NCBI GenBank assembly: GCA_964606485.1
Contig: CAZSGP010000001.1
Span: 417,085-481,084, forward strand
From: an uncultured Planctomycetia bacterium
Lineage (GTDB): Bacteria; Omnitrophota; Gorgyraeia; 2-02-FULL-51-18
Length of the DNA stretch: 64,000 nucleotides
Direction: 5' to 3'
In this document: positions 3,308 to 48,109 of the stretch, piece by piece
Layout of the letters: each line of letters begins with the position of its first letter
How positions within the stretch are numbered: the first letter of the stretch is position 1
Position numbers and translations under genes: made by a program
The notes under the pieces: model-generated
What the model was told of the DNA's origin: nothing
Database searches by the model: none
Seen by the model: only the letters and a program-made list of their open reading frames with translations

Positions 3308-3775
3308 ATGTTCTACGGGGAACATGAACACAGCATCGATCGGAAAGGGCGGCTTATCATCCCCTCTAAATTCAGAGAGGTATTCAAAGAAAATTATGTG
3401 GAGCGATTTTTTATCACTAGAGGCCTTGATTCATGTCTCTTTGTATTCGCAGAAGATGAATGGAAAAAGCAGGAGTCTCGATTCAAGTCGCTTTCGTTCA
3501 CGAATGCACAGGCCAGAAACTTCAACCGGCTTTATTTTTCCGGGGCTTGCGAAGTTAACTGCGATAAGCAGGGGAGAATTCTTGTCCCGCAGTTTTTAAA
3601 AGACTACGCAAAAATTAAGCGGGATTGCGTGATTGTGGGCGTGTCGAATCGTATGGAAATTTGGAGCAAAGAACTGTGGGTACACTTTTATGAAAACACG
3701 AAGGATACATTCGAAAAGATTGCAGAAGATCTCATGGGCGGTACAAACGAAAACCCGCAAGGGGGAGGGGTCTAA
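3308..3775 (+). CDS. mraZ: Division/cell-wall cluster transcriptional regulator MraZ
   Basis: 155 aa. MFYGEHEHSIDRKGRLIIPSKFRE and a second half-domain GRILVPQFL are the duplicated MraZ fold. It is the first gene of the dcw cluster. Confidence 0.9.
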   Translation: MFYGEHEHSIDRKGRLIIPSKFREVFKENYVERFFITRGLDSCLFVFAEDEWKKQESRFKSLSFTNAQARNFNRLYFSGACEVNCDKQGRILVPQFLKDYAKIKRDCVIVGVSNRMEIWSKELWVHFYENTKDTFEKIAEDLMGGTNENPQGGGV

Positions 3776-7079: not shown

Positions 7080-8539
7080 CCTCGCTAAAGCTGTTGTTGC
7101 GAGACTCCTTCCCGGAGCGTTCAGATCTTTCGGGTTTACCCGATATTTCCATTCAAAGCATTGAGTCCGATTCTCGAGCGGTGCAAAAAGGAGCTTTGTT
7201 TGTGGCGGTGAAGGGGGCCGTAGCAGATGGTCGTCAATTCATTGAGGATGCGCTCAATCGAGGGGCCGCGGCAGTGGTGGGAGAGGGTCCTCGTCCCGAA
7301 AGCTGTGCAGTTCCTTTTATAGAGGTTCAAGATACGCGGCAGGCCGCCGCAAGACTCGCCACCTCTTTCTACGATCACCCCACTAAACGCCTCTCCATGG
7401 TCGGGATCACCGGAACCAACGGCAAAACGACGAGCGCGTATCTCTTGGAACATTTCCTAAATTCAGCTCATAAAAAAACAGGAGTGTTGGGGACGGTATC
7501 GCACCGTTATCCGGGCAAAGAAACATTGGCGTCGGAAACGACACCCGGTCCGCTCAAGCTTCAAGCCATTTTAAAAGAAATGGCAGATGCTAATTGTGAA
7601 TGGGCCGTGATGGAAGTTTCTTCCCATGCGCTCGACCAGCGCCGCACTGAAGGCATTCGATTTAAGGCAGCACTCTTTACGAATTTAACTCAAGACCATT
7701 TGGACTATCACCACACACTCGAAGCGTATTTTGAAGCGAAGGCTAAATTATTTTTGAGTCTTGAACCTAGTCAAACGGCGGTGCTCAACGCGGATGACGC
7801 TTGGAATCAAAAATTACGCAACCGGCTTTCTTGCCGAGTTTTAACTTATTCTGTAAACGGCCCATCCGATTTTAAGGCGGAATCGATCCGCTTTGAAAAT
7901 AGCCAAGTGCATTTTAATGTTCGGTTTCAAAACCAAATTATCCCTGTTAGCACCTCTCTTTTAGGCTCACACAATATTTATAATATTCTCGGAGCAACCG
8001 CAGTTTTTCACGCGCTTGGGTTTAATTTGGGCTTGATTCCAGATTATCTCCAATCTTTCATTGGGGTTCCCGGGCGTCTAGAGCGCGTGGATGCCGGTCA
8101 AAATTTCCATGTGTTTATCGATTTTGCGCACACGCCTGACGGCCTAGAAAACGTGCTAAAGAGTCTGCAGGCGTATAAAAAAAACCGGCTGATCACGCTT
8201 TTTGGCTGCGGTGGCGATCGTGATCGGGGCAAGCGTCCTAAGATGGCCGAAATTGCCGCACGGCTGTCAGATCAAGTAATTGTAACCTCCGACAACCCCC
8301 GTTCGGAAGACCCAAAGGCCATTGCGCAGGAAATTTGCGCTGGATTCACACAAGATTTTAAAAATTTTAGCGTTATTTTAGATCGTAAAAAAGGGATTCG
8401 TCAGGCGCTGATGGATGCGCGTGAAAATGATATTGTTATTCTTGCCGGAAAAGGGCATGAGCGCAATCAGGTGATTGGCGCGCAGTCGTTCCCGTTTTCA
8501 GACCGCGAGGAAGCCATAAAGGTGCTCAATGGACATTAG
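7076..8539 (+). CDS. murE: UDP-N-acetylmuramoyl-L-alanyl-D-glutamate--2,6-diaminopimelate ligase MurE
   Basis: GITGTNGKTT P-loop; DNPRSEDP (the DNPR motif is typical of meso-DAP-adding MurE). Confidence 0.9.
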   Translation: MTSLKLLLRDSFPERSDLSGLPDISIQSIESDSRAVQKGALFVAVKGAVADGRQFIEDALNRGAAAVVGEGPRPESCAVPFIEVQDTRQAAARLATSFYDHPTKRLSMVGITGTNGKTTSAYLLEHFLNSAHKKTGVLGTVSHRYPGKETLASETTPGPLKLQAILKEMADANCEWAVMEVSSHALDQRRTEGIRFKAALFTNLTQDHLDYHHTLEAYFEAKAKLFLSLEPSQTAVLNADDAWNQKLRNRLSCRVLTYSVNGPSDFKAESIRFENSQVHFNVRFQNQIIPVSTSLLGSHNIYNILGATAVFHALGFNLGLIPDYLQSFIGVPGRLERVDAGQNFHVFIDFAHTPDGLENVLKSLQAYKKNRLITLFGCGGDRDRGKRPKMAEIAARLSDQVIVTSDNPRSEDPKAIAQEICAGFTQDFKNFSVILDRKKGIRQALMDARENDIVILAGKGHERNQVIGAQSFPFSDREEAIKVLNGH

Positions 8540-9911
8540 TCTCAAAGAAATTCAAGACGCGACGGGCGGGACGGTTTTGTCGTCTGCAGCGAGTGATTTG
8601 GTGGTGCGAAAGGTGTCGACCGATACGCGCACCATCGAAAAAGGTGATTTATTTTTTGCGCTCATTGGTCCCAATTTTGACGGCCATGATTTTATAAAAG
8701 ACGCTTACGAAAAAGGCGCGCGCACTTTTGTGGTCTCGGATGAAAAAAAAGTCCCAGCCGCTGTAAAAACGACGACCAATTTAATTCACGTTGAGGACAC
8801 GCTCAAAGCTTACGGGGATCTCGCCAAACTTTATCGCCAAAAATTTAAAATTCCTGCCGTGGCTATTACGGGAAGCTCCGGAAAAACCACTCTCAAAGAA
8901 ATGACCGCGCATATTTTGGGAGCGAAGTTTAAGGTGCTCAAAAATCGCGGCACTGAAAATAATCTGGTTGGAGTTCCCAAAACCATTTTCCAGCTTGAAG
9001 AGTCCCATGAGATTTTAGTTTTAGAAATGGGCACCAATGCTCCCGGCGAAATCGAACGCCTTGCGTCGATTGTGGCGCCGCAGATCGGCGTTGTGACGCA
9101 AATCGGGCTCTCTCATTTGGAGGGCCTAAAAACGCGCGAGGGCGTGAAAGAAGAGAAGCTTAAAATTCTGACCCATTTAGAGCGCGGTGGCATTCTTGTT
9201 TTGAACGGCGAAGACGAGTTGTTGAAGGACGTTCAAAGCGGCGTTCATAAAATTATTCGTGCGGGCTTCGGAAAAGAAGGCGAAGAATGGGCAGCCGATC
9301 AAGTATGGTGTCACGAAAAGGGAAGTTCTTTTCATTTAAAAGGTGAAATCTTTGAAACACAGCTTCTAGGTCGCCACAATGTGCTGAATTGTGTGCTCGC
9401 CGTCTCAGTGGCAGGTCTACTCGGAATGGAATTTTCGGCGATTCAAAAGGCGCTCGCTTCATTTAAGCCTGTGTCCGGTCGGCTTTATTCAAAAGAACTC
9501 GCAGGCATTATCTTTTTGGATGACACGTACAACGCTAACCCAACTTCTTTGCGCGCCGCGCTCGAGACGCTAAAAGATATGAAGCTTCGTGAGCGAAAAG
9601 GCGTTGTGTGTGGAGACATGTTGGAGCTCGGCGCTCAAAATGAGACGCTTCACCGCGAGGCTGGAAAACAAATTGCGGCTATGTTGTTTGATTTTGTAAT
9701 CGCGGCCGGCCCTTCTTGTAAATTTTTAGTGGAGGAAGCTTTAAAATGCGGTTTTGACCCAACGCGCATTCATCACGTCAAAGACAGTGTGGAGGCGGGG
9801 AAGGTTTGCCGGCAAATTGCGAAAGAGGGCGACCGGATTTTAGTGAAAGGTTCCCGTGGCATGAAAATGGAGAAAGTTTTCGAATGCTTTACCACTTCCT
9901 CTACCCGCTAA
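8529..9911 (+). CDS. murF: UDP-N-acetylmuramoyl-tripeptide--D-alanyl-D-alanine ligase MurF
   Basis: AITGSSGKTT; Mur ligase domain organisation; dcw position. Confidence 0.9.
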   Translation: MDISLKEIQDATGGTVLSSAASDLVVRKVSTDTRTIEKGDLFFALIGPNFDGHDFIKDAYEKGARTFVVSDEKKVPAAVKTTTNLIHVEDTLKAYGDLAKLYRQKFKIPAVAITGSSGKTTLKEMTAHILGAKFKVLKNRGTENNLVGVPKTIFQLEESHEILVLEMGTNAPGEIERLASIVAPQIGVVTQIGLSHLEGLKTREGVKEEKLKILTHLERGGILVLNGEDELLKDVQSGVHKIIRAGFGKEGEEWAADQVWCHEKGSSFHLKGEIFETQLLGRHNVLNCVLAVSVAGLLGMEFSAIQKALASFKPVSGRLYSKELAGIIFLDDTYNANPTSLRAALETLKDMKLRERKGVVCGDMLELGAQNETLHREAGKQIAAMLFDFVIAAGPSCKFLVEEALKCGFDPTRIHHVKDSVEAGKVCRQIAKEGDRILVKGSRGMKMEKVFECFTTSSTR

Positions 9912-10972
9912 GAGATCTCTTTTTCGGGTTTAACGTTTTTCGCTACATCACGTTTCGTGCTGCTATGGCTAGCATCACGGCGTTTCTGGTTAGTTTATGG
10001 CTCGGACCGAAAGTGATTCAAGCGCTCAAGGATTTAAACCTAAAACAAACCATCGAGCGCGCCGGATTCGCCAAACTTTACGCCGAGCATCTCGGAAAAG
10101 AAAAAGTTCCGACCATGGGTGGAGTTCTCATCATGGGTGCGATGGGGGTTTCCGTTCTTTTGTGGGCGGATCTTTCCAATCGATTCGTCATTTTAAGCAT
10201 GCTCACCATGGCGTGGCTTGGGGCGGTCGGTTTTTGGGATGACTATTTAAAGCTTTCCAAGAAGGACTCAAAAGGGCTGCGCGCAAGCCTGAAATTAATG
10301 GGGCAGGTGGTTTTTGCATTGGGGCTCGGAGCGTATTTGTATTGGGATTCGCCGGCATGGCAAGTGGTTCCTGTGCCATTTTTAAAGAATGTGGTTTTTT
10401 CGCTCGGGATTTTTTACATTTTATTTGTAGTGCTTGTGATTGTGGGTTCCTCGAATGCCGTGAATTTGACTGATGGGCTAGACGGCTTGGCGATTGGTTG
10501 CACGCTGATGGTGGCACTCGCGTATTCTATTTTTAGCTATGTCACGGGAAACTTTAAAATTAGCCACTATTTGCAAATTCCATTTGTGCCGGGAGCGGGG
10601 GAGCTCACCGTGATTTGCGCGGCGCTCTTTGGCGCGGCGCTGGGTTTTCTGTGGTTTAATGCGCATCCGGCGACAGTGTTTATGGGAGATATTGGCTCTC
10701 TAAGTCTTGGTGGCGTACTCGGCGCCATAGCTGTGTTCACCAAAAAAGAACTGCTGCTCCTCATTGTCGGCGGTGTTTTTGTGGTAGAAGCGTTGTCGGT
10801 CATTTTGCAGGTCGCTAGTTTCAAGTTACGAGGCAAGCGGATTTTTTTAATGTCGCCGCTTCACCATCACTTTCAGCTCACCGGCCTCAAAGAAACAAAA
10901 GTCGTGATCCGGTTTTGGATTGTTTCGATCATCCTCGCGCTGATCGGTTTTGCGTCGCTCAAATTGCAGTAA
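9884..10972 (+). CDS. mraY: Phospho-N-acetylmuramoyl-pentapeptide transferase MraY
   Basis: Polytopic membrane protein with NAVNLTDGLDGLA and FMGDIGSLSLGG motifs. Start moved to the ATG at 9884 (MLYHFLYP); the track ORF is extended upstream into murF. Confidence 0.9.
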   Translation: MLYHFLYPLRDLFFGFNVFRYITFRAAMASITAFLVSLWLGPKVIQALKDLNLKQTIERAGFAKLYAEHLGKEKVPTMGGVLIMGAMGVSVLLWADLSNRFVILSMLTMAWLGAVGFWDDYLKLSKKDSKGLRASLKLMGQVVFALGLGAYLYWDSPAWQVVPVPFLKNVVFSLGIFYILFVVLVIVGSSNAVNLTDGLDGLAIGCTLMVALAYSIFSYVTGNFKISHYLQIPFVPGAGELTVICAALFGAALGFLWFNAHPATVFMGDIGSLSLGGVLGAIAVFTKKELLLLIVGGVFVVEALSVILQVASFKLRGKRIFLMSPLHHHFQLTGLKETKVVIRFWIVSIILALIGFASLKLQ

Positions 10973-10976
10973 TCGC

Positions 10977-12320
10977 ATGAAACTTAAAAATAAAAAAATA
11001 GCCGTCATAGGCCTTGGTAAAAGCGGGTTTGCCGCAGCGAAATTTTTGGTGTCTCAAAAAGCGCAGGTCCGCGCAACCGATGCTGGTCAGAAAAATGAAG
11101 TCTTAGAAAACGCAGGATATCTTAAGAGTCTAGGTATTTCTGTAGAAACGGGCGGTCACAGCGAAGCGTTTCTAAAAGGGGCGGAGCTGATCGTGACGAG
11201 TCCTGGGGTTCCTAAAAATAGCCTACCGCTCGCGTACGCGGCAGCCCAAAAAATTCCGGTGATCAGCGAAATTGAACTTGCCGCTGCCTTTTGCAAGGGG
11301 ACAATTATTGCCGTGACGGGTTCGAACGGAAAAACCACGACGTGTCATTTGATTCATCGCTTGCTCAGTGACGCTGGCAAAAAAAGCGCGCTCTGCGGGA
11401 ATGTTGGGTTTTCATTTATCGAGGCGCTCGGTGAAATTGATCGTCAAACACTGGTGGTGCTAGAGCTTAGCTCGTTTCAGCTCGAAGATAGCCCTCGATT
11501 CCGGCCGCAGATTGCAGTTTTACTCAATGTAAGCCCGAATCACTTGGATCGCCATAAAACCATCGAAAAATATGCCGCGGCTAAAGCCAAAATTTTTAAG
11601 AATCAAACCTCCAAAGATTGCCTGGTTGCCAATTTTGACAACGCGTTCACAAAAGAAATGGCTTTAAAGGCGCGTTCCAAAACCATTTTTTTTAGCAAAG
11701 CGCCGCTCAAGTCAGGGGTTTACGTCAAAGACGGGAAAGTGTTTTGGAAATCCAAAGGATCCGCACGCCCCATTTTGAACACGCGGACGTTTTCCCTAAA
11801 GGGCGCACACAATCTAGAAAATATGATGGCTGCGGCAGCGGTGGGGCAGGTGTTGGGTGTTTCGAGTGTGGTAACACAGAAAACGTTTGAAAATTTTACG
11901 ACGCTTGAGCATCGGATTGAGCCCGTTCGCGAAATAAAAGGTGTGCGCTTTTTCAACGATTCGAAGTCTACAACGCTCGACAGCACACGTGCCGCCATCA
12001 TGGCTGTGCCGGGACCGCTGGTTTTGATTGCGGGAGGGCGCGATAAAGGTTCAGATTTTGAGCGCATCGAAGATCTGGTCCGCGAAAGGGCGAGGTGTGT
12101 CATTTTGTACGGCGAGTCGCGCGAGAAAATTAAAAAAGCCTTCAGGAATGTTCCTGTCTGTGAAACGGAGGAGCTGTTTGAAAAAGCAGTTCTGAAAGCG
12201 TTTGGCGCAGCCCGCTCAGGGGACGCGGTTTTGCTATCGCCCATGTGTACGAGCTTCGATCAGTTCAACTCGTTTGAGCACCGCGGCGAAGTGTTTAAAA
12301 AGATCGTTCAAGGCCTCTAA
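10977..12320 (+). CDS. murD: UDP-N-acetylmuramoylalanine--D-glutamate ligase MurD
   Basis: N-terminal Rossmann IAVIGLGKSG; VTGSNGKTTT P-loop. Start at the ATG at 10977 (MKLKNKKIAVIG). Confidence 0.9.
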   Translation: MKLKNKKIAVIGLGKSGFAAAKFLVSQKAQVRATDAGQKNEVLENAGYLKSLGISVETGGHSEAFLKGAELIVTSPGVPKNSLPLAYAAAQKIPVISEIELAAAFCKGTIIAVTGSNGKTTTCHLIHRLLSDAGKKSALCGNVGFSFIEALGEIDRQTLVVLELSSFQLEDSPRFRPQIAVLLNVSPNHLDRHKTIEKYAAAKAKIFKNQTSKDCLVANFDNAFTKEMALKARSKTIFFSKAPLKSGVYVKDGKVFWKSKGSARPILNTRTFSLKGAHNLENMMAAAAVGQVLGVSSVVTQKTFENFTTLEHRIEPVREIKGVRFFNDSKSTTLDSTRAAIMAVPGPLVLIAGGRDKGSDFERIEDLVRERARCVILYGESREKIKKAFRNVPVCETEELFEKAVLKAFGAARSGDAVLLSPMCTSFDQFNSFEHRGEVFKKIVQGL

Positions 12321-13424
12321 ATGGAAACCTTGCAGAGAGTGCGTTCGCTTTTAATCGGATCAGCGCTCATTCTTATGGGCATTGGTGTCGTGATGATTTA
12401 CAGTGCCAGCGCTATTTATGCGTTTGATCAAATGAAAGACAGCACTTATTTTTTAAAACGGCATTTGGTTTACCTTGCTCTTGGCGGAATACTGCTCTGG
12501 GTGGCAAGCCGGGTCAATATTCAAGCGTTGCGGCGCCACACCAAGGCGATTTTAATTTGGGGGATTGTGCTGGTTGTTCTGGTGCTGCTTCCGTTTGTGG
12601 GTCACTCGGCGGGGGGCGCGCGGCGTTGGTTTAAAATTTTGGGGCTGAGTTTTCAACCGTCCGAGTATTTGAAGCTTGCTGTTATTTTTTACATGGCTGA
12701 TTTTTTGGATCGCCGAAAAGAAACAATTTCTGATTTAAAGCACACCGTTTTTCCGGCGATTGTAGTCTTAGGGCTTTGTGCGGGCCTCGTTTTTTTACAG
12801 CCCGATCTCGGAACCGCGGTCACGATTGCGCTTGTGACGCTTATTCTATTTTTTACGGCGGGATTTAACATTAAACATCTCTTGTCGATGATTATCTGCG
12901 GTATTCCAGTCCTTTTGTACGCGATGCTCGCAAAGCCTTACCGGCGAAAAAGAATCTTGGCGTTCGTGAACCCGTGGGAAGATCCGCGGGGAGTGGGGTA
13001 TCAGGTGATTCAATCTTTTCTAGCCATTGGCTCCGGAGGAATTTTTGGCGTGGGTCTTGGACGGTCGCAGCAAAAATTATTTTTCCTCCCGGAATCTCAC
13101 ACGGATTTTATTTTCTCGATTATTGCCGAGGAGCTTGGATTTCTAGGAACAAGTTCGATTGTAATTTTATTTGCGGTGTTTATTTTTTCAGGCATGGTGA
13201 TTGTGTTTCGTGCGAAGAGTCATTTTTCACAGCTCTTGGGCATGGGGCTTGTGAGTTTGATCGGCCTTCAGGCGGTGATCAATATTGGAGTCAGCACCGG
13301 CGCGCTGCCCACCAAAGGGTTGTCACTCCCGTTTATTAGCTACGGAGGTTCCGCGCTTTTAACGAATATGACCGCTTTGGGGTTACTCATTAATCTTTCA
13401 AGGGAGCTTCCGGAGGACTCATGA
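12321..13424 (+). CDS. ftsW: Peptidoglycan glycosyltransferase / lipid II flippase FtsW (SEDS family)
   Basis: Ten-TM SEDS protein with PESHTDFIFS and GGSALL motifs, between murD and murG. Confidence 0.9.
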   Translation: METLQRVRSLLIGSALILMGIGVVMIYSASAIYAFDQMKDSTYFLKRHLVYLALGGILLWVASRVNIQALRRHTKAILIWGIVLVVLVLLPFVGHSAGGARRWFKILGLSFQPSEYLKLAVIFYMADFLDRRKETISDLKHTVFPAIVVLGLCAGLVFLQPDLGTAVTIALVTLILFFTAGFNIKHLLSMIICGIPVLLYAMLAKPYRRKRILAFVNPWEDPRGVGYQVIQSFLAIGSGGIFGVGLGRSQQKLFFLPESHTDFIFSIIAEELGFLGTSSIVILFAVFIFSGMVIVFRAKSHFSQLLGMGLVSLIGLQAVINIGVSTGALPTKGLSLPFISYGGSALLTNMTALGLLINLSRELPEDS

Positions 13425-14506
13425 AAATTGTTCTAGCTTGCGGAGGAACTGGGGGGCACATTTTCCCGGCCTTTAGCGTCGCCGAAGAATTAAAAAAAAG
13501 AAATCCATCTGTCGAAATTGTTTATGTCTGCGGCAACATGGACATTGAAAGCGCTATTTTTAAAATTATTCGAGGTGAGCGCGTGTTTTCGGTGACGAGC
13601 GCGGCGTTCCGTGGAGGGAGATCGCTTCTTGATATTCGTTTTCTGATCAAGCTATTTAAAGGTCTTTCGGCGAGCTTCTGGTTCTTAAAAAAAGAAAAGC
13701 CGGCGCTTGTGGTGGGTTTTGGCGGATATTTTTCGTTTCCCATGGTGTTCACAGCGCGTCTACTCGGAATTCGCGCCATGGTTCACGAGCAAAATGTGAT
13801 TCCGGGGGTCGCCAATAAGATTTTAGCCAAAATGGTCAACGGTGTGGCGCTTAGCTTCGAGGACACGCTCTCTTACTTTAACGATAAACACAATTTGCGC
13901 GTGACGGGAAACCCCATTCGCTCGTCGATCGAAAATGCTTCCCAAAAAGACGCGCTTCAATTTTTTGGATTTTCTCCTGACAAAAAAACCCTGCTTGTGC
14001 TCGGGGGAAGCCAAGGAGCAGAGTCGATTAACACGCTTTTTATTGACGCGCTTTCTTATTTGGAGCCCGAATTTAAAAGTAAATTGCAGGTGTTGCATCT
14101 ATGCGGCAAAATGAATCCAGCCGAATCAGAGGCTGCGTTTAAGCGCCACGGAATTCTCGCCAAATCTTTTTCGTTTTTTGAGCGAATGGACTTGGCGTAT
14201 GGCGCAAGCTCTGCGGCGATTGGACGCGCGGGCGCTACTTTCTTAGCGGAAATTCAGGCGCGAAAAATCCCAGCGATTTTAATCCCTTATCCGTACAGCA
14301 ATGGTCATCAGTCCAAAAATGCGGAAAGTTATAGTCGGACCGATCGCGCTATCGTCGCCGAGCAATTTGGGTTATCCTCGCAGAAATTGGCAGAACATGT
14401 TAAAAGTATAGTAGCGCTTTCGGATGAACAGGGTTCGAAAACCATGCCGTCAGTGAGTGCGCGGGCGAGACTAGCGGATTACATCGAAGAAACAGTTGGA
14501 GTTTAA
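13421..14506 (+). CDS. murG: UDP-GlcNAc:undecaprenyl-PP-MurNAc-pentapeptide GlcNAc transferase MurG
   Basis: MKIVLACGGTGGHIFPA N-terminal G-loop; GGSQGA. Confidence 0.9.
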   Translation: MKIVLACGGTGGHIFPAFSVAEELKKRNPSVEIVYVCGNMDIESAIFKIIRGERVFSVTSAAFRGGRSLLDIRFLIKLFKGLSASFWFLKKEKPALVVGFGGYFSFPMVFTARLLGIRAMVHEQNVIPGVANKILAKMVNGVALSFEDTLSYFNDKHNLRVTGNPIRSSIENASQKDALQFFGFSPDKKTLLVLGGSQGAESINTLFIDALSYLEPEFKSKLQVLHLCGKMNPAESEAAFKRHGILAKSFSFFERMDLAYGASSAAIGRAGATFLAEIQARKIPAILIPYPYSNGHQSKNAESYSRTDRAIVAEQFGLSSQKLAEHVKSIVALSDEQGSKTMPSVSARARLADYIEETVGV

Positions 14507-14509
14507 GAC

Positions 14510-17500
14510 GTGAAAATTCATTTTATCGGAATTGGTGGCATTGGCATGAGCGGCATTGCGCGCCTTTATCTGCAAAGCGGCCACACCGTTTCTGGAAGCG
14601 ATTTGAAGTATGCGGATGTGATTGGCGGGCTCGAAAAGCTGGGAGCTAAAATTTTTATTGGTCACAAAGCGCAAAACGTCGAAGGCGCCGAGCTTGTCGT
14701 GTATTCCTCGAGCATTAAAAACGATCACGTGGAAATTGTGTTTGCGCGCGAACGGCAGATCCAGGTGATTCATCGTTCGGAAGCGCTGGCGCGTCTTTGT
14801 GAGGGAAGATTTACCATTGCCGTGTCTGGAACGCACGGCAAGACGACTACCACTTCGTTGATTGGTATGATTCTAAAAGAAGCTGAAAAAGATCCGCTCG
14901 TGGTGGTTGGGGGGATTGTGAAGGAGTTTGGCGGCAATGCCCGCGCAGGTTCCGGCCCTGCCGTCATCGAAGCTGACGAGAGCGATGCTTCTTTTTTAAA
15001 TTTTTCACCCAATATTTCCGTCGTCACCAATATCGAAGCCGAGCATTTGGATCACTTTGGAAATTTTGAAAATGTACTCACGGCGTTTCGAAATTTTATC
15101 AAGCGCCTGCCTGAAAACGGCGTGTGGATTGGCACGTCGGACGACAGCGGTGTGAAGATTTTGGCCGAAGAAAAAAGCCGGCGCTTTGTGGGTTGCAAGC
15201 TCGGTGAGAGTGGCGTTGATTTCTGGGCGAGCGATATTGTGGAGTGTCCCGAAGGAAACCGTGGAATTTCTTTTAATGTTTGGAAAGGCAGCGAGAATTT
15301 AGGCAAAGTGTCGATGCGCATGATGGGCACGCATAACGCCTCAAACGCGCTTTGCGCGGTAGCCGTCGGCTTGGAGTTAGGAATCAATTTTCAAGTCATT
15401 GCCTCAGCCCTCGGCAAATACGAAGGCGCCCGGCGCCGTTTTGACGTGCGCTACGAAGATTCTGAGCTATTAATTGTCGATGACTATGCCCATCACCCGA
15501 CAGAAATTAAAAAAACATTGTCTGCTGCAAGGGCCATTGCCAATAAACGCATTGTGGCGCTTTTTCAGCCGCATCGCTACTCGCGCACCGAAGCATTTTT
15601 AAATGAATTCAGCGAAAGCTTTCATCATGCCGATCAGCTCATCATTACCGATATTTATGCCGCGTCCGAATCTCCGCGGCCCGGCATTAGCGGGGAAAAG
15701 CTTTCCGAAGCCGCTCACGACGCGGGGCACCCAAACGTAACCTTTGTGAAGCGAGACCGCTTGAGCGACTTTGCTAAAAATGAAATCCGGCCAGGGGATT
15801 TAGTGATTACGCTCGGCGCCGGAGACATTAGTCAAGTGGCTAGCGAAATTTCTGATTACTTGCGTCAAAGAAGTCTTTTTTCCGGATTTCGCGGACGCGT
15901 GTTGATCAATGAATCCTTGAGCCGCCACACCTCCTTAAAAATCGGAGGACCGGTCGAAGCGTGGGTAGAGCCAGCTGACGAAGCGGATTTAAAACGGCTT
16001 TTAGAAATCGCCAAGGAAAATAATAAAAAAATTTATATTTTTGGTGGGGGAAGCAATATTTTGGTCGCCGACGAGGGCTTAAAAGGATTCGCGTTGAACC
16101 TTGGTGGAAACGCTTTTAAGGAAATTCGATTGGAAAATGGGAAGGTGCTTGTCCGGGGAGGCGTTCCCAATGCGCTATTTATTCAATTTGCGCTGGAACA
16201 CAATTTAGGCGGTTCTGAATTTTTATCAGGCATCCCGGGGACGATTGGTGGAGCGGTGGCGATGAACGCCGGAAGCCACGGACAGTCAGTGGACCTCATT
16301 TTAGAACAAATTCGTGTGATGGATTTTGATGGCAATGAAAGTGTGCTTAAAAAAGATGATCTGGGTTTCGGATACCGGACTTCGAATATTAAAAATAAAA
16401 TTGTGCTCGAGGCTACATTTGCTCTGCCAGCGCGGGCCCACGAAGAATCTCAGAAAATATTAGACGAATACCGCCAACGCCGCGCTAAAACACAGGATCT
16501 GTGGCATGCCAGTGCCGGCTGTATGTTTAAAAACCCGATGGATTCGAATTGTTCGAGCGGCAAACTCATCGACGACGCCGGTTTAAAAGGCAAGACCGTT
16601 GGTCGGGCTCAAGTTTCGGAGAAGCACGCGAATTTTATTATCAATTTGGGTGGCGCTAAGTCCGGCGACATCATTGGATTAATCCGCGAAGTTCAAAAAT
16701 CTGTCGAGCAGCGCTTTGGGTTGCGGCTAGAGGAAGAGGTTCGGTATTTTTCAGACGAGCCGGAGAAGTTGAAAGGCGCTGCCGTTGCGATTGAAGCGGT
16801 GGAACTTCCCAAAAAAATCGTGGTTTTGGCTGGGGGAACGTCTTGTGAGCGGGAAGTGTCACTCGTTTCCGGAAAAGCCGTTTGTGACGCGCTTACTCAA
16901 AAAGGATTGAATGCTATTCTGCTCGACCCTGTCGGAGATTTTGAGCCTCAGCTTCGAAACCAAAAACCGGATTTTGCGTTCATTGCCTTGCACGGAACGT
17001 TTGGCGAAGACGGAGCTGTGCAGAAAATTTTAGATAAAGAAGAAATTCCTTATAGCGGCTCAGGACCCGAAGCGAGTGCCAAAGCGTTTGATAAGGCCAA
17101 AGCTCAAGCCTTTTTTAAGGATGCAGGAATCGACGTGGCTGATTTTGCAGTGCTCGACCAAAGCTTTGGAATTCGCGTGCCTCAAGGGATCCCATTTCCG
17201 CTCGTGGTGAAGCCTTCTGCTGCCGGTTCCAGTGTGGGAATCACTCTTCTGCAGGACGCTGGTATGTTTGAGGCTGCGGTGAAAGAAGCGTTTAAGTATT
17301 CGGACAAGGTGCTCGTCGAAAAATACATCTCTGGACGGGAGTTGACGGTGGGAATTTTGGGGGACCAGACGCTTCCCATAGTCGAAATTGTATCCAAAAG
17401 AAAATTTTATGATTATCAAGCGAAATACGGCGACTCCGGAACGACGTATGAAGTGCCGGCAAAAATTGAGCCGGTCCTCGCTCAAAAGATCGCTCAAATT

Positions 17501-17725
17501 GCACTCAAAGCCCATCGCATTTTAGGCTGTGAAGCCATGTCCCGCGTTGATTTTATCCTGGGCGAAGACGGAACGCCGTATCTGCTTGAAATCAATACCA
17601 TCCCGGGTCTCACGGGCCGGAGCTTGCTCCCGAAGGCAGCCAAAGCTGCCGGCATCGATTTCGGCTCGCTTTGTGTTAAAATCATCGAGCTTTCACTGGA
17701 GTCCCAAAGTTGCCAAAGCCCGTAA
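14510..17725 (+). CDS. murC-murB-ddl: Trifunctional fusion MurC - MurB - Ddl in one ORF
   Basis: 1071-aa uninterrupted ORF. aa 1 to ~460 are MurC-like (IHFIGIGGIGMSGIA, VSGTHGKTTT). aa ~465 to ~755 are MurB-like FAD-binding reductase (LKIGGP, FGGGSNIL, GIPGTIGGAVAMNAG). aa ~770 to 1071 are D-Ala-D-Ala ligase ATP-grasp (KIVVLAGGTSCEREVSL, LHGTFGEDG, EINTIPG). There are no stops at the junctions near 15890 and 16790. Confidence 0.85.
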   Translation: MKIHFIGIGGIGMSGIARLYLQSGHTVSGSDLKYADVIGGLEKLGAKIFIGHKAQNVEGAELVVYSSSIKNDHVEIVFARERQIQVIHRSEALARLCEGRFTIAVSGTHGKTTTTSLIGMILKEAEKDPLVVVGGIVKEFGGNARAGSGPAVIEADESDASFLNFSPNISVVTNIEAEHLDHFGNFENVLTAFRNFIKRLPENGVWIGTSDDSGVKILAEEKSRRFVGCKLGESGVDFWASDIVECPEGNRGISFNVWKGSENLGKVSMRMMGTHNASNALCAVAVGLELGINFQVIASALGKYEGARRRFDVRYEDSELLIVDDYAHHPTEIKKTLSAARAIANKRIVALFQPHRYSRTEAFLNEFSESFHHADQLIITDIYAASESPRPGISGEKLSEAAHDAGHPNVTFVKRDRLSDFAKNEIRPGDLVITLGAGDISQVASEISDYLRQRSLFSGFRGRVLINESLSRHTSLKIGGPVEAWVEPADEADLKRLLEIAKENNKKIYIFGGGSNILVADEGLKGFALNLGGNAFKEIRLENGKVLVRGGVPNALFIQFALEHNLGGSEFLSGIPGTIGGAVAMNAGSHGQSVDLILEQIRVMDFDGNESVLKKDDLGFGYRTSNIKNKIVLEATFALPARAHEESQKILDEYRQRRAKTQDLWHASAGCMFKNPMDSNCSSGKLIDDAGLKGKTVGRAQVSEKHANFIINLGGAKSGDIIGLIREVQKSVEQRFGLRLEEEVRYFSDEPEKLKGAAVAIEAVELPKKIVVLAGGTSCEREVSLVSGKAVCDALTQKGLNAILLDPVGDFEPQLRNQKPDFAFIALHGTFGEDGAVQKILDKEEIPYSGSGPEASAKAFDKAKAQAFFKDAGIDVADFAVLDQSFGIRVPQGIPFPLVVKPSAAGSSVGITLLQDAGMFEAAVKEAFKYSDKVLVEKYISGRELTVGILGDQTLPIVEIVSKRKFYDYQAKYGDSGTTYEVPAKIEPVLAQKIAQIALKAHRILGCEAMSRVDFILGEDGTPYLLEINTIPGLTGRSLLPKAAKAAGIDFGSLCVKIIELSLESQSCQSP

Positions 17726-18525
17726 AAAACAGGCCTAAGAAAAAATCTGTCTTAGGTTCCTTCTCCGTCAAGATGGCCGGAGGTTTTAGAAGCACGCTCC
17801 TTGCGTGTTTTCCTTACTTTTTATCGCTGGCGCTGGCCGGAATTTTTTTTGGCGGAGTGCTAGCCTACGCGATGAATTCTTCGGCCTTTCAGTTGCGGGA
17901 TGTCAAAATTTTAAATGCCGGCCCGATGAACTATGAGCAAGCTTTCGAATTTTGTGATCTAAGACCGGGGGAAAATCTGATTACGCTTGATCTTGTGGCT
18001 GTTCAACAGGTGATTCGCCGCAAGCATCCCGAGTTTAAAGAAGTTCGTGTTTCGAGAGTGCTGCCTAACCGCGTGGAAGTGGTGCTCAAGCGCCGCACAC
18101 CTGCCGCACAAATTGCATTTGGATCGCGCTTTGTGCAAATGGACCGCGATCTTGTTATTCTTCCTGGATCTGCCAATGCGCCTTTTAAAAATTTAACGGT
18201 TATCGACGGCGCTGTGGTTCCAAAGACCGGACTTTTTGTCGGCTCGAGTTTAACCGACCCCATGACCAAAAAAGCGCTAAAGCTTACTGAAATTATCAGG
18301 CAGTCGGAGCTCTCCAAAAAACACGTGCTTACCTCTATCGACATTCGTGACCCCAAGAACGTCTCCTTTTATTTTGATGGGGACCTGGAAATTCGTGTGG
18401 GCGGAAATCATTTTATTGAGAGGCTCAAAATTCTCGAGCAAACGACGAAAAACATCGAACTCGATCGCTCTAAGGTCCGATACGTCGATCTGCGTTTTGA
18501 CGACGTCGTCATCGGTCCCCGATGA
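17710..18525 (+). CDS. ftsQ: Cell division protein FtsQ/DivIB (POTRA domain)
   Basis: N-terminal TM helix and POTRA-like LRDVKILNAGPMNYEQAFEFCDLRPGENLITLDL. dcw position. The start may be M23 at 17773. Confidence 0.75.
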   Translation: MPKPVKNRPKKKSVLGSFSVKMAGGFRSTLLACFPYFLSLALAGIFFGGVLAYAMNSSAFQLRDVKILNAGPMNYEQAFEFCDLRPGENLITLDLVAVQQVIRRKHPEFKEVRVSRVLPNRVEVVLKRRTPAAQIAFGSRFVQMDRDLVILPGSANAPFKNLTVIDGAVVPKTGLFVGSSLTDPMTKKALKLTEIIRQSELSKKHVLTSIDIRDPKNVSFYFDGDLEIRVGGNHFIERLKILEQTTKNIELDRSKVRYVDLRFDDVVIGPR

Positions 18526-19547
18526 GCGAATACTCCATTCTCGACGTCGGTCATAAGACGACTGTTGTCCTTACCGCTCGCCGCGCAACACCCAATAGTT
18601 GGCAGATTCTAGGGGCAGGAGACAGCCCAACCCGCGGTTTTTTAAACGGGGAAATTTCTCATATTGGCGACTTGGTGGAAACGCTTGCGGAGGCCCGACG
18701 AAAATGCGAAAAGGCGTCCGGTGTTGCCATTAATCGTTTGTATTACAATTTTGATGACTCGCAGATTCAATCCATTCGTTCCAAGGGCCATAAATATTTA
18801 AAGGGAGAAGGCGAGATCACCTCGGTCGATGTGAAGGATGCAGCCGACGCTGCGCGTCGAAGCGCCGATACTTTCGAGCGCGCCACGGTTTACGCCAAAG
18901 AATTGTCGTTTGTCATTGACGGACGCGATCCCGTTTGGGATCCGATTGGAGTTTTTGGAGCAGAGCTCGAGGCCACACTTCATTTGCTGCAGGCGCGCTC
19001 TTCGCTGTGCCAGCAATGGAAAAGCGCTATTGAGCGCGCGCATATTTCGCAAGGGACTCTCGTGCCGTCGGCTTGGTCGGCTGCCGTTGCGATTTTGCCG
19101 CCATCAGACCGCGAGCGCGTGAGACTGATTTTGGATTTGGGCGAAGATTTCTTTAATTTTTTTACTTTTGAAAAATCGCGCATTACCGATGCCTGCACGT
19201 TGCTAGCCTGCTTGGATAGTAATGGCACCATGGATGAAGGCGCAGCGATGCTCCTTAAAAAAATTACCCAAGAAAATCCAAACATCGAACAAGTTTTTGT
19301 GACGGGTGATTTGGCAAGCCAGGAAAAAGTAATTCAAAAACTCGAAAGTGTCACGGGTCTTCCTGTTTTACAAGCGCCGGCTCTTGGAGTGTCGGGAGTT
19401 TTATCGCAACCTCGTTTCGCGTCAGCCGTTGGCCTTTTGTCGGTAGCGGAAGAAATTGAAAAAAGAGAGCCTGTGATGCGTAAGCCCCGGGGATTTCTAG
19501 ATGGAGTCAAAACAAAGGCGACGACGTTTATTCATGAATACTTTTAA
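18522..19547 (+). CDS. ftsA: FtsA-like actin-fold cell division protein (short, degenerate nucleotide-binding motifs)
   Basis: 341 aa, where FtsA is usually ~410-440. [12 protein letters not shown] phosphate-1-like N-terminus. The region equivalent to DxGGGT reads LDLGEDFF. Alignable to FtsA along its length. ftsZ is not downstream. Confidence 0.65.
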
Positions 19548-20748
19548 ACCAAGCCCCATTCCGGAAGTATTGGCGGAGCTCAAAAAAGGCCGCGTGATCA
19601 TCGTGGTGGACGACGAAGATCGCGAAAACGAAGGTGATCTCATCGTCTCCGCAGAATTTGCAACACCGGCCAATATTAATTTTATGGCCAAGCACGGCCG
19701 CGGCATTATTTGCGTGCCCATGGAGTCTGATCGTCTAAAGGAGCTTGGTATCGATTTAATGGTTCAGGTGAATACAGACGAGCTCAAAACGGCCTGGACG
19801 GTATCGATCGATGCCAAAAAGGGAGTCACGACCGGAATCTCCGCGTATGACCGCGCGCATACGATTAAAGTTTTAATTGATCCTAAGTCGAAGCCATCGG
19901 AATTGGCGAGACCGGGGCATATTTTCCCGCTGCGCGCCAGAGAGGGTGGCGTGCTCGTGCGCGCGGGCCACACCGAAGCGTGTGTGGACTTGATGAAGCT
20001 TGCCGGACTTTATCCGGCAGGCGCCATTTGTGAAATTATGAACGATGATGGCAGTATGGCGCGCACGCCGGATCTTGCGGCATTTGCAAAAACGCACAAA
20101 TTAAAAGTTTGCACCATTCGCGATCTCATCGAATACCGTCGCAAAAAGGAAAACCTGGTCTTCAAGGCGGTCGAAACGCAAATGACAAATGCGTACGGCG
20201 AATTTAAGCTTGTGGCCTACGAGTCTTCGGTGGATAAAGACTATCATGTGGCTCTCGTGATGGGAGATCTAACTGGTTCTAAGCCGGTGCTCGTGCGTGT
20301 GCACTCCGAATGTTTTACCGGAGACGTTCTGGGTTCCAAGCGATGTGACTGTGGTGAGCAATTAAACGCAGCGCTTGAGAAAATCGCCCGCGAAAAAAGA
20401 GGCGTTTTGCTTTACATGCGTCAAGAAGGGCGGGGGATTGGACTGCTGAACAAATTAAAAGCCTACCAACTTCAGGATCAGGGGCTGGATACTGTGGAGG
20501 CCAACGAGCGCCTGGGCTTTCCGGCGGATCTGCGACATTACGGAGTTGGCGCGCAAATTTTGGCAGATTTGGGAATCAAAAAAATTAAACTGCTAACCAA
20601 TAATCCTAAAAAAATTGTGGGTCTCGACGCGTATGGATTAAAAGTGGTCGAGCGCATTCCCATTGAAATGAAGCCAGGCCCTCACAATAAAAAATATCTC
20701 GCGACTAAAAAGAAAAAATTAGGCCATTTTCTGGAAGGCGTCGAATGA
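19534..20748 (+). CDS. ribBA: Bifunctional 3,4-dihydroxy-2-butanone-4-phosphate synthase / GTP cyclohydrolase II (RibBA)
   Basis: [14 protein letters not shown] (RibB domain); CDCGEQL and [11 protein letters not shown] (GTP cyclohydrolase II zinc site and loop). Start at the ATG at 19534, overlapping the ftsA-like stop by 14 nt. Confidence 0.9.
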
Positions 20749-21209
20749 TTCGGAAAACGAAGGGAAGTTACTCGGCGAAAAATTTAAAATTTGCGATCGT
20801 GGTGTCGCAGTTCAACGAAGCGCTCACGAACCGCCTCTTAGAAGGTGCCGTGGATACACTTCTGCGCAGTGGCGCCCAGGAAAAAAATATTGAAGCTATT
20901 TACGTTCCGGGAGCATTTGAAATTCCGCTCGCAGTTAAAAAAATTATTTCGCGGGAAAAAATTGATGCAGTGATCACGCTAGCGGTGGTGATTCGGGGGA
21001 AGACCAAACATTTTGACCAGGTGGTAAAAGAATCAGCCAAAGGAGTGCGTGAAATTTCTATGAAAACTCAAGTTCCGGTTATTTTGGGAATTATCCCAGC
21101 AGAAAATGAAGCCGATGCGCTTGCGCGTACCGGCATTAAACAAGCCAACAAAGGTCGCGACTGGGCACTTGCCGCGATTGAAATGGCCAATCTCATGAAG
21201 AAAATTTAA
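20745..21209 (+). CDS. ribH: 6,7-dimethyl-8-ribityllumazine synthase
   Basis: 154 aa. [10 protein letters not shown]...VPGAFEIP lumazine synthase signature. Confidence 0.9.
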
Positions 21210-21210: not shown

Positions 21211-21636
21211 ATGAGAAAACGCACCCGTTCGAGAGAAATGGCGCTTCAAGCGCTGTACCAGTTAGACCTCGTTCAATCGAAGATCTCTGAGGCTTTGGAA
21301 AGCACCCGCGAAGAGCGGCAAGCTGAAGCGGCCGGCCCCGAAGTTAAAAAATATGCAGAAGTTTTAGTTCGCGGCGTCTCTGACAAGATCACGGATCTCG
21401 ATCAAGTTATTGAGCAGTTTGCCGAACACTGGAAAATTAACCGCATGGCCTGTGTGGACCGGAACATTTTAAGACTCTCCGCGTATGAAATTATTTACGT
21501 GGATGATGTTCCGCCGAAAGTGGCCATGAACGAAGCCATTGAGCTCGCCAAAAAATTTGGAGACTCCGATTCTCCCAAATTCGTGAACGGTATTTTGGAC
21601 AAGGTGGCCAACGTTTATGGGAAAAATAAATCCTAA
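21211..21636 (+). CDS. nusB: Transcription antitermination factor NusB
   Basis: 141 aa. ARxxALQALYQ-type NusB N-terminus. Classic ribH-nusB pairing. Confidence 0.9.
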   Translation: MRKRTRSREMALQALYQLDLVQSKISEALESTREERQAEAAGPEVKKYAEVLVRGVSDKITDLDQVIEQFAEHWKINRMACVDRNILRLSAYEIIYVDDVPPKVAMNEAIELAKKFGDSDSPKFVNGILDKVANVYGKNKS

Positions 21637-22717
21637 AGATATTCTCCTGATGCGCCAGGCGCTCAAGTGCGCCGAAAAAGGCCGCGGAGCCGTTCACCCT
21701 AATCCCATGGTGGGTGCGGTTCTTGTGAAAGAAGGCCGAGTGATCGCAGAAGGCTTTCACGAGAAATTTGGCGACCCCCACGCTGAAGTGAACGCGATTA
21801 AAAATTCGAAAGTAGACCCTCGCGGAGCGACGCTCTACGTCACGCTCGAACCCTGTTCGCATCAAGGGAAAACGCCGCCTTGCGCAGAATTCGTCATTAA
21901 AAGCGGTATTAAAAAAGTGGTGATTGCGCGCCAGGACTCGAATCCACTCGTTTCAGGCCGTGGAATTGCTGCCCTCAAAAAAGCAGGTGTTGAAGTTGTG
22001 TTGGGCGTACTCGAAAAAGAAAGTTCGCGGCTGAACCAGGATTTTGATTTTTGGATCCGCACTAAAATTCCATACGTTGTGGTCAAAGCCGCTCAGAGCG
22101 TGGACGGTAAAATTGCCACGAGCAGCGGTGACTCACAGTGGATTACAGGGGTTGAAGCCCGAAAACTTTCGCATCAACTTCGCTTGGAGGCTGACGCGGT
22201 TTTGGTGGGGGTGAACACAGTCTTAAAAGACGATCCGAAGCTTAGCGTCCGTGCCGTCAGAACAAAGCATCAGCCCGTTAAAATTATTTTAGACAGTTTT
22301 TTAAAAACGCCCCCGAACGCTAAGATTTTTTCGAAGGAATCTCCGGGCAAAGTGATTCTTGCGGTCACATCCAAAGTATCTCGACGTAAAATAAAATCCT
22401 TCGAGAAAAAAGCGCAGGTTTTAGTGGTCCCAGAAAAGGCGGGCCGCGTGGATTTCGAGTCCCTACTCAGAACGCTTGGAAAAGACGGGATTGTGAAAAT
22501 CTTAGTTGAGGGCGGTGGTGAGACAATTGCCTCCGCGCTCGAATCCAAGCGTGTTCAGGAAGCTTATTTTTTTGTGGCACCAACGATTATTGGAGGCCGA
22601 AGCGCAGTCGGTTCGGTGGCTGGAAATGGCGTAGGTCGTTTATCGCAAGCGCTTCACTTTCGGGAGTGGAGTGCGAAGCCGGTGGGAAAAGATCTTTTGA
22701 TTCATGGGTATTTTTAA
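21617..22717 (+). CDS. ribD: Bifunctional riboflavin biosynthesis protein RibD (deaminase/reductase)
   Basis: HAEVNAI...PCSHQGKTPPC CDA zinc motif, then a RibD reductase C-terminal domain. Confidence 0.9.
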   Translation: MGKINPKDILLMRQALKCAEKGRGAVHPNPMVGAVLVKEGRVIAEGFHEKFGDPHAEVNAIKNSKVDPRGATLYVTLEPCSHQGKTPPCAEFVIKSGIKKVVIARQDSNPLVSGRGIAALKKAGVEVVLGVLEKESSRLNQDFDFWIRTKIPYVVVKAAQSVDGKIATSSGDSQWITGVEARKLSHQLRLEADAVLVGVNTVLKDDPKLSVRAVRTKHQPVKIILDSFLKTPPNAKIFSKESPGKVILAVTSKVSRRKIKSFEKKAQVLVVPEKAGRVDFESLLRTLGKDGIVKILVEGGGETIASALESKRVQEAYFFVAPTIIGGRSAVGSVAGNGVGRLSQALHFREWSAKPVGKDLLIHGYF

Positions 22718-22718
22718 A

Positions 22719-23303
22719 ATGTTCACAGGCATAATCGAAGCGCAGGGAACGGTTAAAGCTTTTAAAAGCGGCAAGCTTGAGATTGTGGTCCCTCAATTTT
22801 TTGGAAAATTAAAAAGGGGTTCGAGTCTCGCTGTCGACGGCGTTTGTCTCACCGTTACGCGCCAGACTGCAAGAATTGCTGTTTTTGACGTGGTTCGAGA
22901 AACCCAGAAGCGCAGCACACTTGGATTGCTCGCAGCTGGTAGCCAGGTTAATTTGGAGCGTCCGCTCAAATGGCAGGGGCGCATCGAAGGGCATTTTGTA
23001 TCGGGCCATGTGGACGGGGTAGGAATTGTTAAAGTGGTGACAAAACGCAAGAACGAAACGGATATTCAAATCCAAGCATCCCCCAATCTAAAGGCCTTTC
23101 TCGTTGAAAAGGGGTCTGTGGCCATTAATGGGGCGAGTCTGACCCTTGGGAAAGTTAAGGGGGGTATTTTTTGGATTCATTGCATCCCCCACACCTTAAA
23201 ACTCACTAATTTAAACCGCCTCCAAAAGGGCGATCGGGTGAATTTGGAAGCGGATCTCGCCGCAAAGTTGATTTGCGCCAAACGTTCCCGGCGTTTTAAT
23301 TGA
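22719..23303 (+). CDS. ribE: Riboflavin synthase alpha subunit
   Basis: MFTGIIE start; two lumazine-binding repeats (SLAVDGVCLTV / SVAINGASLTL). Start at the ATG at 22719 rather than the track's 22704. Confidence 0.9.
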   Translation: MFTGIIEAQGTVKAFKSGKLEIVVPQFFGKLKRGSSLAVDGVCLTVTRQTARIAVFDVVRETQKRSTLGLLAAGSQVNLERPLKWQGRIEGHFVSGHVDGVGIVKVVTKRKNETDIQIQASPNLKAFLVEKGSVAINGASLTLGKVKGGIFWIHCIPHTLKLTNLNRLQKGDRVNLEADLAAKLICAKRSRRFN

Positions 23304-33070: not shown

Positions 33071-33077
33071 AGAACGG

Positions 33078-35606: not shown

Positions 35607-35640
35607 TTGGTTATCGTTGACCGTTTGGGAGGAGCTCGGC

Positions 35641-45175: not shown

Positions 45176-45187
45176 AAATTTATCTGC

Positions 45188-48101: not shown

Positions 48102-48109
48102 CCCGCCGG

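Follow-up and report, generated by a model that had tools for sequence, protein, structure and literature searches.

Can three enzymes of cytoplasmic peptidoglycan precursor synthesis be encoded as one polypeptide? The question is raised by a gene in a 64,000-nucleotide (nt) stretch of an Omnitrophota genome (assembly GCA_964606485.1, contig CAZSGP010000001.1, positions 417,085 to 481,084), which was analysed over its whole length and is called the window below. An initial annotation had proposed that this gene, in the division and cell wall (dcw) cluster, joins MurC, MurB and Ddl in a single open reading frame (ORF). We conclude that the triple fusion very probably is genuine and codes for a trifunctional enzyme of cytoplasmic peptidoglycan-precursor synthesis, whose three activities and expression as a single chain are predicted from sequence.

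The ORF listing of the window gives one uninterrupted frame with a GTG start, coding for 1071 amino acids (aa). Frame 0 contains the terminal stop only, while the other two frames contain 46 and 57 stops. Pfam domains follow each other from the N- to the C-terminus as Mur_ligase, Mur_ligase_M, Mur_ligase_C, FAD_binding_4, MurB_C, Dala_Dala_lig_N and Dala_Dala_lig_C. In NCBIfam, three models match without overlap over practically their full length, all scoring above the curated cut-offs, and the protein divides into MurC (aa 1-452), MurB (aa 458-750) and Ddl (aa 765-1071). The ORF listing, Pfam and NCBIfam agree with the proposed single ORF, and both profile collections detect the three enzymes, complete and in the murC/murB/ddl order of the dcw cluster. 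The frame is open through both junctions, as had been stated. These had been placed at ~15890 and ~16790; we find them at ~nt 15866-15880 and ~nt 16751-16813, in agreement to within a few tens of bases.

The MurC module scores 491.8 bits with the murC model TIGR01082 (cut-off 335.1), with aa 2-447 covering positions 1-448 of 449, and contains the Pfam domains PF01225, PF08245 and PF02875. The Mpl model gives 192 bits, below its cut-off of 388.7. Residues 2-447 align with Haemophilus influenzae MurC (1gqq, E 1.7e-97), and Foldseek superposes the module on 1p31 with a target template-modelling (TM) score of 0.93. Aligning 52 triple fusions, we find K111, E157, H179, N276, H328/H329 and R356/R359 invariant. 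By the equivalog models the module classes as MurC, distinct from Mpl, MurD, MurE and MurF, and its ligase activity is predicted.

The MurB module reaches 317.3 bits with NF010480 (cut-off 259; aa 458-749 on positions 10-300 of 303) and 227.9 bits with TIGR00179 (cut-off 144.5). Both Pfam domains are found (PF01565, E 7.4e-20; PF02873, E 1.9e-32). It aligns over its full length with 4pyt, 3tx1 and 1hsk, and the target TM score against 4pyt is 0.91. The key Arg, His and Glu residues are invariant or nearly so in the aligned triples. At the proton-donor position the module has Cys671, where 4pyt, 3tx1 and 9dtk have Ser. MurB enzymes of types I and IIa use Ser here, and those of type IIb, an active class, use Cys (PMC3689657). 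The same Cys occurs in 152 of 198 MurC-MurB fusions and in 46 of the 52 triples. Cys671 is not a defect, since it is the known type IIb state and is common, indeed in the majority, among MurC-MurB fusions; we thus ruled it out as an inactivating substitution. The module classes as a type IIb MurB with predicted reductase activity.

The Ddl module carries the motifs GGTSCEREVSL, HGTFGEDG, VVKPSAAGSSVG, FYDYQAKY, RVDFIL and LLEINTIPGLTGRSLLP. It scores 354.8 bits with NF002378 (cut-off 243; aa 767-1064 on positions 6-303 of 305) and 299.4 bits with TIGR01205 (cut-off 245.65). The VanA, VanC, VanD, VanG, VanL and VanN models give 135-194 bits against cut-offs of 495-750. Over its residues 3-298 the module aligns with 3v4z, 1iov and 2dln, and the target TM score against 4c5a and 2dln is 0.92. 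Across the triples, its key Glu, Ser, Lys-Tyr, Arg, Asp, Glu and Asn vary little or not at all. K972-Y973 in FYDYQAKY are invariant; by motif alignment we take them to be K215/Y216 of E. coli, the omega-loop Lys-Tyr pair. The module is therefore assigned to the D-Ala-D-Ala type rather than to the Van-type D-Ala-D-Lac/Ser ligases, with its specificity predicted. Intact catalytic signatures, as claimed in the initial annotation, are thus found in all three modules across the 52 triples.

Several points nevertheless weigh against a genuine trifunctional enzyme; they concern the activity of the modules, their mutual geometry and the second junction. One module could be a catalytically dead scaffold, its reaction being carried out by the product of a separate gene located elsewhere. 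The portion of the genome covered is 64 kb, so that a stand-alone murB or ddl may lie outside it, and the MurB proton donor is Cys, not Ser. In addition, attempts to show MurB activity in vitro failed for the related MurC-MurB fusion of Verrucomicrobium spinosum described by Naqvi et al. 2016, although that fusion complements murB in vivo (PMC4803751). In our data, a second murB or ddl was not found within the window, every module scores above equivalog or subfamily cut-offs, and the known catalytic and binding residues are conserved across the triples, the Cys-type MurB being a recognised active class (PMC3689657). We regard a dead module as highly improbable.

The geometry was addressed with an AlphaFold2 (AF2) model of the full protein, built on 91 homologues, and with a second model of the MurC-MurB part alone. 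The mean predicted local distance difference test score (pLDDT) is 93, and the modules superpose on solved enzymes with target TM scores of 0.91-0.94. Foldseek returned no PDB chain spanning more than one module of the window protein. The predicted TM score (pTM) is 0.64 for the full protein and 0.74 for MurC-MurB alone. These values are too low to establish an inter-module geometry; we therefore dropped a defined arrangement from consideration and claim no channel. Locally, the first junction is well modelled. It counts five residues in the window protein and 0-13 across homologues of group A (the window protein and nine other Omnitrophota triples, described below). Its pLDDT is 84-91, helix 440-456 runs into the strand at 463, and none of its residues is disordered.

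What would such a protein do? UDP-N-acetylmuramic acid (UDP-MurNAc) is the product of MurB and the substrate of MurC (PMC4803751). In the proposed mechanism, the MurB module, a reductase of the Cys-type IIb dependent on flavin adenine dinucleotide (FAD) and NADPH, would make UDP-MurNAc, and the ATP-dependent MurC ligase would add L-Ala to it. Ddl, an ATP-grasp ligase, would make the D-Ala-D-Ala that MurF uses three steps on. One chain would fix a 1:1:1 stoichiometry and co-localise the three activities. Because the MurC-MurB joint is short and structured in the model, proximity-assisted hand-over of UDP-MurNAc between these consecutive steps is plausible, and the joint could favour it. Ddl is excluded from this argument, since it feeds MurF three steps later and sits on a disordered tether; its benefit, and any selective advantage of tethering it, would be co-expression, stability or co-localisation. 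The implications for stoichiometry and channelling drawn in the initial annotation therefore stand only in part. Channelling can be argued for MurB to MurC and not for Ddl, for which arguments of stoichiometry, co-localisation or stability apply. No new chemistry is expected, because each module is an ordinary and well-understood enzyme.

The second junction is of another kind. A linker of 21 residues, SDEPEKLKGAAVAIEAVELPK, separates the MurB end from KIVVLAGG, the conserved first strand of Ddl. It is the least conserved stretch of the protein, with a majority fraction of 0.37-0.41 versus 0.53-0.72 in the modules, and it holds the only AF2 segment with pLDDT below 50 (aa 756-763). Among the triples, MurB-Ddl linkers vary in length and sequence, and those of different subclades are unrelated. 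Exactly at this junction of the window gene lies a run of seven A, the only place where a length error would flip the call between fused and unfused.

This run raised the question of whether the fusion is an assembly or sequencing artefact, the true run being one A longer and murCB and ddl being separate overlapping genes, as in most relatives. With eight A, the Ddl frame would continue the upstream +1 frame, which has a stop at ~16770 and after it KALPLRLKRWNFPKK, where TTG codons occur; ddl would then be a gene of its own that starts at a TTG. Scanning JGI metagenome contigs for the window junction with the A-run length left free, we found no match and hence no independent contig. Artefactual triples do exist in databases. 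One candidate for a distant triple, P0119 (1071 aa, on a 4.26-Mb contig), was excluded, as an Arg/Pro-rich out-of-frame read-through replaces the C-terminal half of its MurB. Its closest relatives are Verrucomicrobiota murCB genes, and a frameshift artefact or a pseudogene is the probable explanation. All modules of the window protein are intact, unlike those of P0119.

The identical 1071-aa protein is encoded on the 546-kb NCBI contig and on a 92-kb contig of the k-mer-based Logan assembly of SRR12487046, with 100% DNA identity over the fusion gene, though the two assemblies may come from the same reads. The eight-A version would require an atypical 34-aa tail on murCB and a ddl overlap of ~60-80 nt. 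In the relatives, MurB ends in ...LETEVRIL*, with 0-4 residues after EVRIL and overlaps of 4-8 nt. A run of six A would leave no start codon. The triples at loci L088 and L089/L090 have no homopolymer of at least 5 at the junction, and those at L086 and L087, which belong to distinct populations sampled separately, have 3 differences in 3198 positions, with the fusion present in both. On this evidence an artefact appears improbable, and we retain the fused gene as the reading of the locus.

Even with a real fusion gene, Ddl might also, or mainly, be made separately by internal initiation, at the TTG that follows a GGAG or at the GTG of Val764, and the 1:1:1 lock would then be lost. The GGAG stands 3 nt before the in-frame TTG, both being read from the sequence. 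Stand-alone Ddl proteins of relatives begin much like the peptide that follows, (M)KGAAVAIEAVELPKKIVVLAGG; its LKGA, for example, resembles the MKKA at the start of the separate Ddl in L004. The linker is, moreover, disordered in the AF2 model. The GGAG and TTG may be what remains of the ribosome-binding site and start that ddl once had, and they are a candidate internal initiation site. A spacing of 3 nt is short for a Shine-Dalgarno site, however, and TTG is a weak start. The promoter signal does not exceed shuffled controls, and such a start is not conserved in the linkers of other triples. As an argument made purely from sequence, internal initiation strikes us as unlikely, if somewhat less so than an artefact, and expression as one chain remains our preferred expectation.

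If the fusion is genuine, is it found in other genomes? A word-indexed search recovered nine other Omnitrophota triples from different samples, each with 53-56% identity to the window protein; together with it they form group A, ten members with 53-77% mutual identity. The closest source-named proteins to the window protein are all labelled 'Candidatus Omnitrophica/Omnitrophota'. Triple P0003 is present in ENA ERZ3430527 and in Logan SRR7369912 with 99.9% DNA identity, P0010 is present in two runs, and L089 and L090 come from two different runs. Triples were verified at the DNA level for loci L002/L003, L086/L087, L088 and L089/L090. Also among the closest matches are ~64 Omnitrophota MurC-MurB proteins, at 51-60% identity to aa 1-750 of the window protein; MurC-MurB is the majority state in Omnitrophota.

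Performing a phmmer search of 1.84 billion cluster representatives, we examined the best 150 matches. A full three-part alignment was seen for six 50%-identity clusters (P0001, P0131, P0140, P0147, P0152 and P0157), the remainder being MurC-MurB or MurC-Ddl pairs or single enzymes. A search seeded with P0140 gave group B, ~62 distinct full-length triples of 1009-1180 aa. Their named sources are mostly Lentisphaerae, Lentisphaeria or Lentisphaeraceae, with one Verrucomicrobiota and one Paceibacterota. In total, 72 of 400 fetched proteins were complete triples. Among the best 80 species-representative loci listed, found with generic motifs and without the window's own genome, there was no fused triple; 15 of the 80 had murCB with an adjacent separate ddl, or 17 when L004 and L005 are counted. 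We take this listing as context and not as a true frequency. The survey of related genomes thus adds nine Omnitrophota triples and ~62 group B proteins to the window protein. The rarity proposed in the initial annotation applies to Omnitrophota (10 triples against ~64 two-part fusions) and to the 80 loci (0/80), but not to the Lentisphaerota-type clade. The named triples in databases all carry single-enzyme names, dozens of proteins in all, and therefore pathway reconstructions can wrongly report murB, or murC and ddl, as missing.

Other combinations were met on the way. MurC-Ddl fusions occur in the dcw clusters of other Omnitrophota (L093 6001-8382, P0081, and ~40 similar proteins of ~793 aa at ~41% identity), so that the MurC-MurB, MurC-Ddl and MurC-MurB-Ddl architectures coexist in one phylum. 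At these MurC-Ddl loci murB is not adjacent, and a Peptidase_MA_2 gene stands between murG and murC-ddl. A MurG-MurC-MurB chimera was seen in P0136/P0274/P0281/P0284 (1155 aa), P0286, P0204 and P0220, from metagenome-assembled genomes labelled Verrucomicrobiia. It has a full N-terminal MurG module, with 28-34% identity to the MurG of the window, and is not among the published Mur chimera types.

How did the fusion arise? In the closest two-part relative, P0013 (60% identity, GCA_964373505.1), murCB overlaps by 4 nt the separate ddl that comes after it; the synteny is otherwise identical to that of the window, down to the riboflavin operon after ftsA. An ATGA overlap of the murCB stop and the ddl start, again with identical synteny, is found in L004 and L007 (Omnitrophota) and in L010 and L013 (Verrucomicrobiota). 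The overlap is 8 nt long (ATGNNTAA) in L006 and L009, and in L008 there is a TGA stop but no ATG. The ancestor would thus have had murCB and ddl with an ATGA overlap, as the relatives do. A small indel, of one base, at this overlap would merge the frames, and the former N-terminal leader of Ddl would become the flexible linker of ~20 residues.

We built a neighbour-joining tree of the MurC-MurB region (277 sequences, 100 bootstrap replicates). Group B triples and 36 two-part proteins form one clade that excludes group A (100/100 bootstrap), and group A is nested in an Omnitrophota clade of ~70 members. As groups A and B each nest within their own two-part relatives, there were at least two independent origins, and the three-part chimeras are not one family by descent. 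Within Omnitrophota the triples are not monophyletic, at a backbone support below 50%. Five of them, 66-73% identical to one another, make up a clade free of two-part proteins (100% bootstrap); P0002 and P0006 pair with the same support, and the window protein, P0004 and P0010 are singletons. Several fusion events within Omnitrophota would fit the unrelated linkers; the linkers do not prove them, given that backbone. Fitch parsimony on neighbour-joining trees gives ~11 changes overall, ~5 in Omnitrophota and 4-8 in the group B clade, all upper-leaning estimates. The fused state is retained over 38-92% identity within group B, and has clearly been maintained through substantial divergence.

The window gene stands in a canonical dcw cluster in the order mraZ, rsmH, ftsI, murE, murF, mraY, murD, ftsW, murG, [murC-murB-ddl], ftsQ-like, ftsA (Table 1). 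The genes around the fusion abut or overlap, and promoter and terminator signals in 13300-18700 are at or below shuffled expectation. At the two group B loci examined, L091 (511-3714) and L092 (7348-10494), the triple genes lie outside any dcw cluster. Standing alone among unrelated genes, they point to a fragmented dcw cluster in the Lentisphaerota-type lineage. Their flanks code for glycosyltransferases, NusA, a beta-lactamase-family protein and a JetD-like protein.

Table 1 Features of the window in and around the fusion gene.
Feature	Position (nt)	Strand	Description
mraZ	3308-3775	+	
rsmH	3998-4882	+	
ftsI	5274-7079	+	
murE	7076-8539	+	
murF	8529-9911	+	
mraY	9806-10972	+	
murD	10950-12320	+	
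ftsW	12321-13424	+	
murG	13421-14506	+	
murC-murB-ddl fusion gene	14510-17725	+	GTG start 4 nt after murG stop; 3' end overlaps ftsQ start by 16 nt
MurC module	14510-15865	+	motifs P-loop GTHGKTTT, EADESD, NIEAEHLD, HNASNAL, DDYAHHPTE, QPHRYSRT
Junction 1	15866-15880	+	aa 453-457, inside ...SDYLRQRSLFSGFRG...
MurB module	15881-16759	+	aa 458-750; UDP-N-acetylenolpyruvoylglucosamine reductase, type II; FAD_binding_4 + MurB_C
Cys671 codon	16520-16522	+	in ASAGCMFKNP; where solved type I/IIa MurB has its general-acid Ser
Junction 2 (linker)	16751-16813	+	aa 748-768; between ...EEEVRYF (MurB end) and KIVVLAGG (Ddl start)
GGAG and in-frame TTG	16762-16771	+	GGAG 16762-16765, TTG 16769-16771 (Leu754); possible vestige of ddl start
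A7 homopolymer	16811-16817	+	ccc aaa aaa atc = P K K I
Ddl module	16802-17722	+	aa 765-1071; DdlB-like D-alanine--D-alanine ligase, ATP-grasp fold
ftsQ-like	17710-18525	+	POTRA_1 + FtsQ_DivIB_C
ftsA (short)	18522-19547	+	
ribBA (riboflavin operon)	19501-20748		
ribH (riboflavin operon)	20745-21209		
ribD (riboflavin operon)	21617-22717		
ribE-like (riboflavin operon)	22704-23303		

Some further observations were made along the window. The 3' neighbour of ftsA is the riboflavin operon and not ftsZ, an order conserved in Omnitrophota relatives (also L002, L004 and L086). FtsA itself has 341 aa; its sole Pfam match is the SHS2 insert domain, and TIGR01174 gives 112 bits against a cut-off of 175.85. 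A gene for the lipid II flippase MurJ (26128-27687, plus strand; PF03023, E 7e-119) lies ~6 kb downstream of the dcw cluster and is followed by a UvrC-like gene, with secA (30494-33070) and lnt (32988-34616) nearby. Upstream of the cluster, at 63-244 and 1386-1688 on the plus strand, are two tRNA genes and a bacterial class A RNase P RNA (202.5 bits). An ORF of 2942 aa (35587-44415, plus strand) has a weak Peptidase_C39 match (aa 1984-2070) as its sole Pfam hit. Giant proteins are a reported feature of Omnitrophota. The region 44001-52000, which includes a 7TM-GAF histidine kinase (48110-50350), has a GC content of 0.41-0.43 versus ~0.48 elsewhere and may have been acquired. A C-5 cytosine DNA methylase (56599-57810) is directly followed by a 1060-aa protein of the SNF2/helicase family (57810-60992, plus strand), and the pair may be a restriction-modification or defence module.

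How does the protein relate to known systems? Stand-alone MurC of H. influenzae and E. coli (1p31/2f00), type II MurB (4pyt/1hsk, and the type IIb enzyme of T. caldophilus, 2gqt) and E. coli DdlB (2dln/1iow) have the same folds and motifs, but as separate polypeptides. The modules of the window protein show 34-42% identity to stand-alone solved enzymes and target TM scores of 0.89-0.94. By its sequence, aa 1-750 classes as a member of the MurC-MurB chimera type of Verrucomicrobiota and Omnitrophota, a type whose Verrucomicrobiota version is essential in transposon sequencing (PMC12283558). The V. spinosum and other Verrucomicrobiota fusions share the N-to-C order and the context ftsW-murG-murCB-ddl-ftsQ, with the window protein at 38-43% identity to those of L009, L010 and L013. 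The V. spinosum protein has two modules, whereas the window protein has Ddl as a third. The V. spinosum paper places the fusion only in Verrucomicrobia lineages and describes a 'linker' of ~100 residues between Pfam domains (PMC4803751); the joint of the window protein is structured and five residues long.

The second comparison is the MurC-Ddl fusion of Chlamydia trachomatis. Its Ddl was reported to need the fusion for activity (McCoy & Maurelli 2005, as cited in PMC10214165 and PMC4803751), a benefit of the kind that is likely for the tethered Ddl of the window protein. The chlamydial protein likewise has MurC at the N-terminus and Ddl at the C-terminus and joins non-consecutive steps in one chain, but without MurB, which stands complete between the two in the window protein. 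The chlamydial MurC/Ddl equivalog NF011171 (PRK14573) was ruled out for the window protein: the score is 447.6 bits where the cut-off asks for 1015, and the match falls into two stretches with MurB between them. The MurE-MurF protein of Bordetella pertussis (PDB 8F5D) follows the same principle of neighbouring dcw genes in one chain, with different enzymes. Among database entries, the unpublished group B triples (for example OPZ25200.1, MCM8535185.1, MDT8390828.1 and MFO7821051.1) have the same module order, complete modules and conserved catalytic residues; their identity to the window protein is 27-35% in MurC/MurB and 37-45% in Ddl.

A 2023 survey of Mur chimeras lists five two-part types, MurE-MurF, MurC-Ddl, MurC-MurB, MurG-MurC and MurD-FtsW, and no three-part type; such chimeras have been argued to stabilise a Mur complex and to fix its stoichiometry (PMC10214165). 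According to a 2026 preprint, murB, murC and ddl occur in every one of 176 complete Omnitrophota genomes; fusions go unmentioned there. In the open-access papers searched, we did not find a MurC-MurB-Ddl protein described. The triple apparently adds an undescribed combination to a known class, that of Mur chimeras.

Cell-wall biology has long asked whether the cytoplasmic Mur enzymes work together in a complex. From genomes, the case for one comes chiefly from natural chimeras, which have also given the sole structural view to date, that of MurE-MurF. The triple would add a three-part class to a catalogue that now holds pairs only, and it points to dcw neighbours coupled by ATGA as genes that fuse recurrently. 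A stable MurB/MurC/Ddl chain would suit cryo-electron microscopy, crystallography and tests of UDP-MurNAc channelling. Tentatively, and with more doubt than confidence, we propose that the same chimera was assembled repeatedly and long kept in bacteria of the PVC (Planctomycetes-Verrucomicrobia-Chlamydiae) group. Such recurrence would mean that MurB, MurC and Ddl, together with MurG, normally form a physical assembly. Stoichiometry and proximity would then be under selection, and a fixed MurC-MurB geometry would hand over UDP-MurNAc. If so, each of these fusions would capture, in one natural chain, part of a cytoplasmic 'Mur synthesome'.

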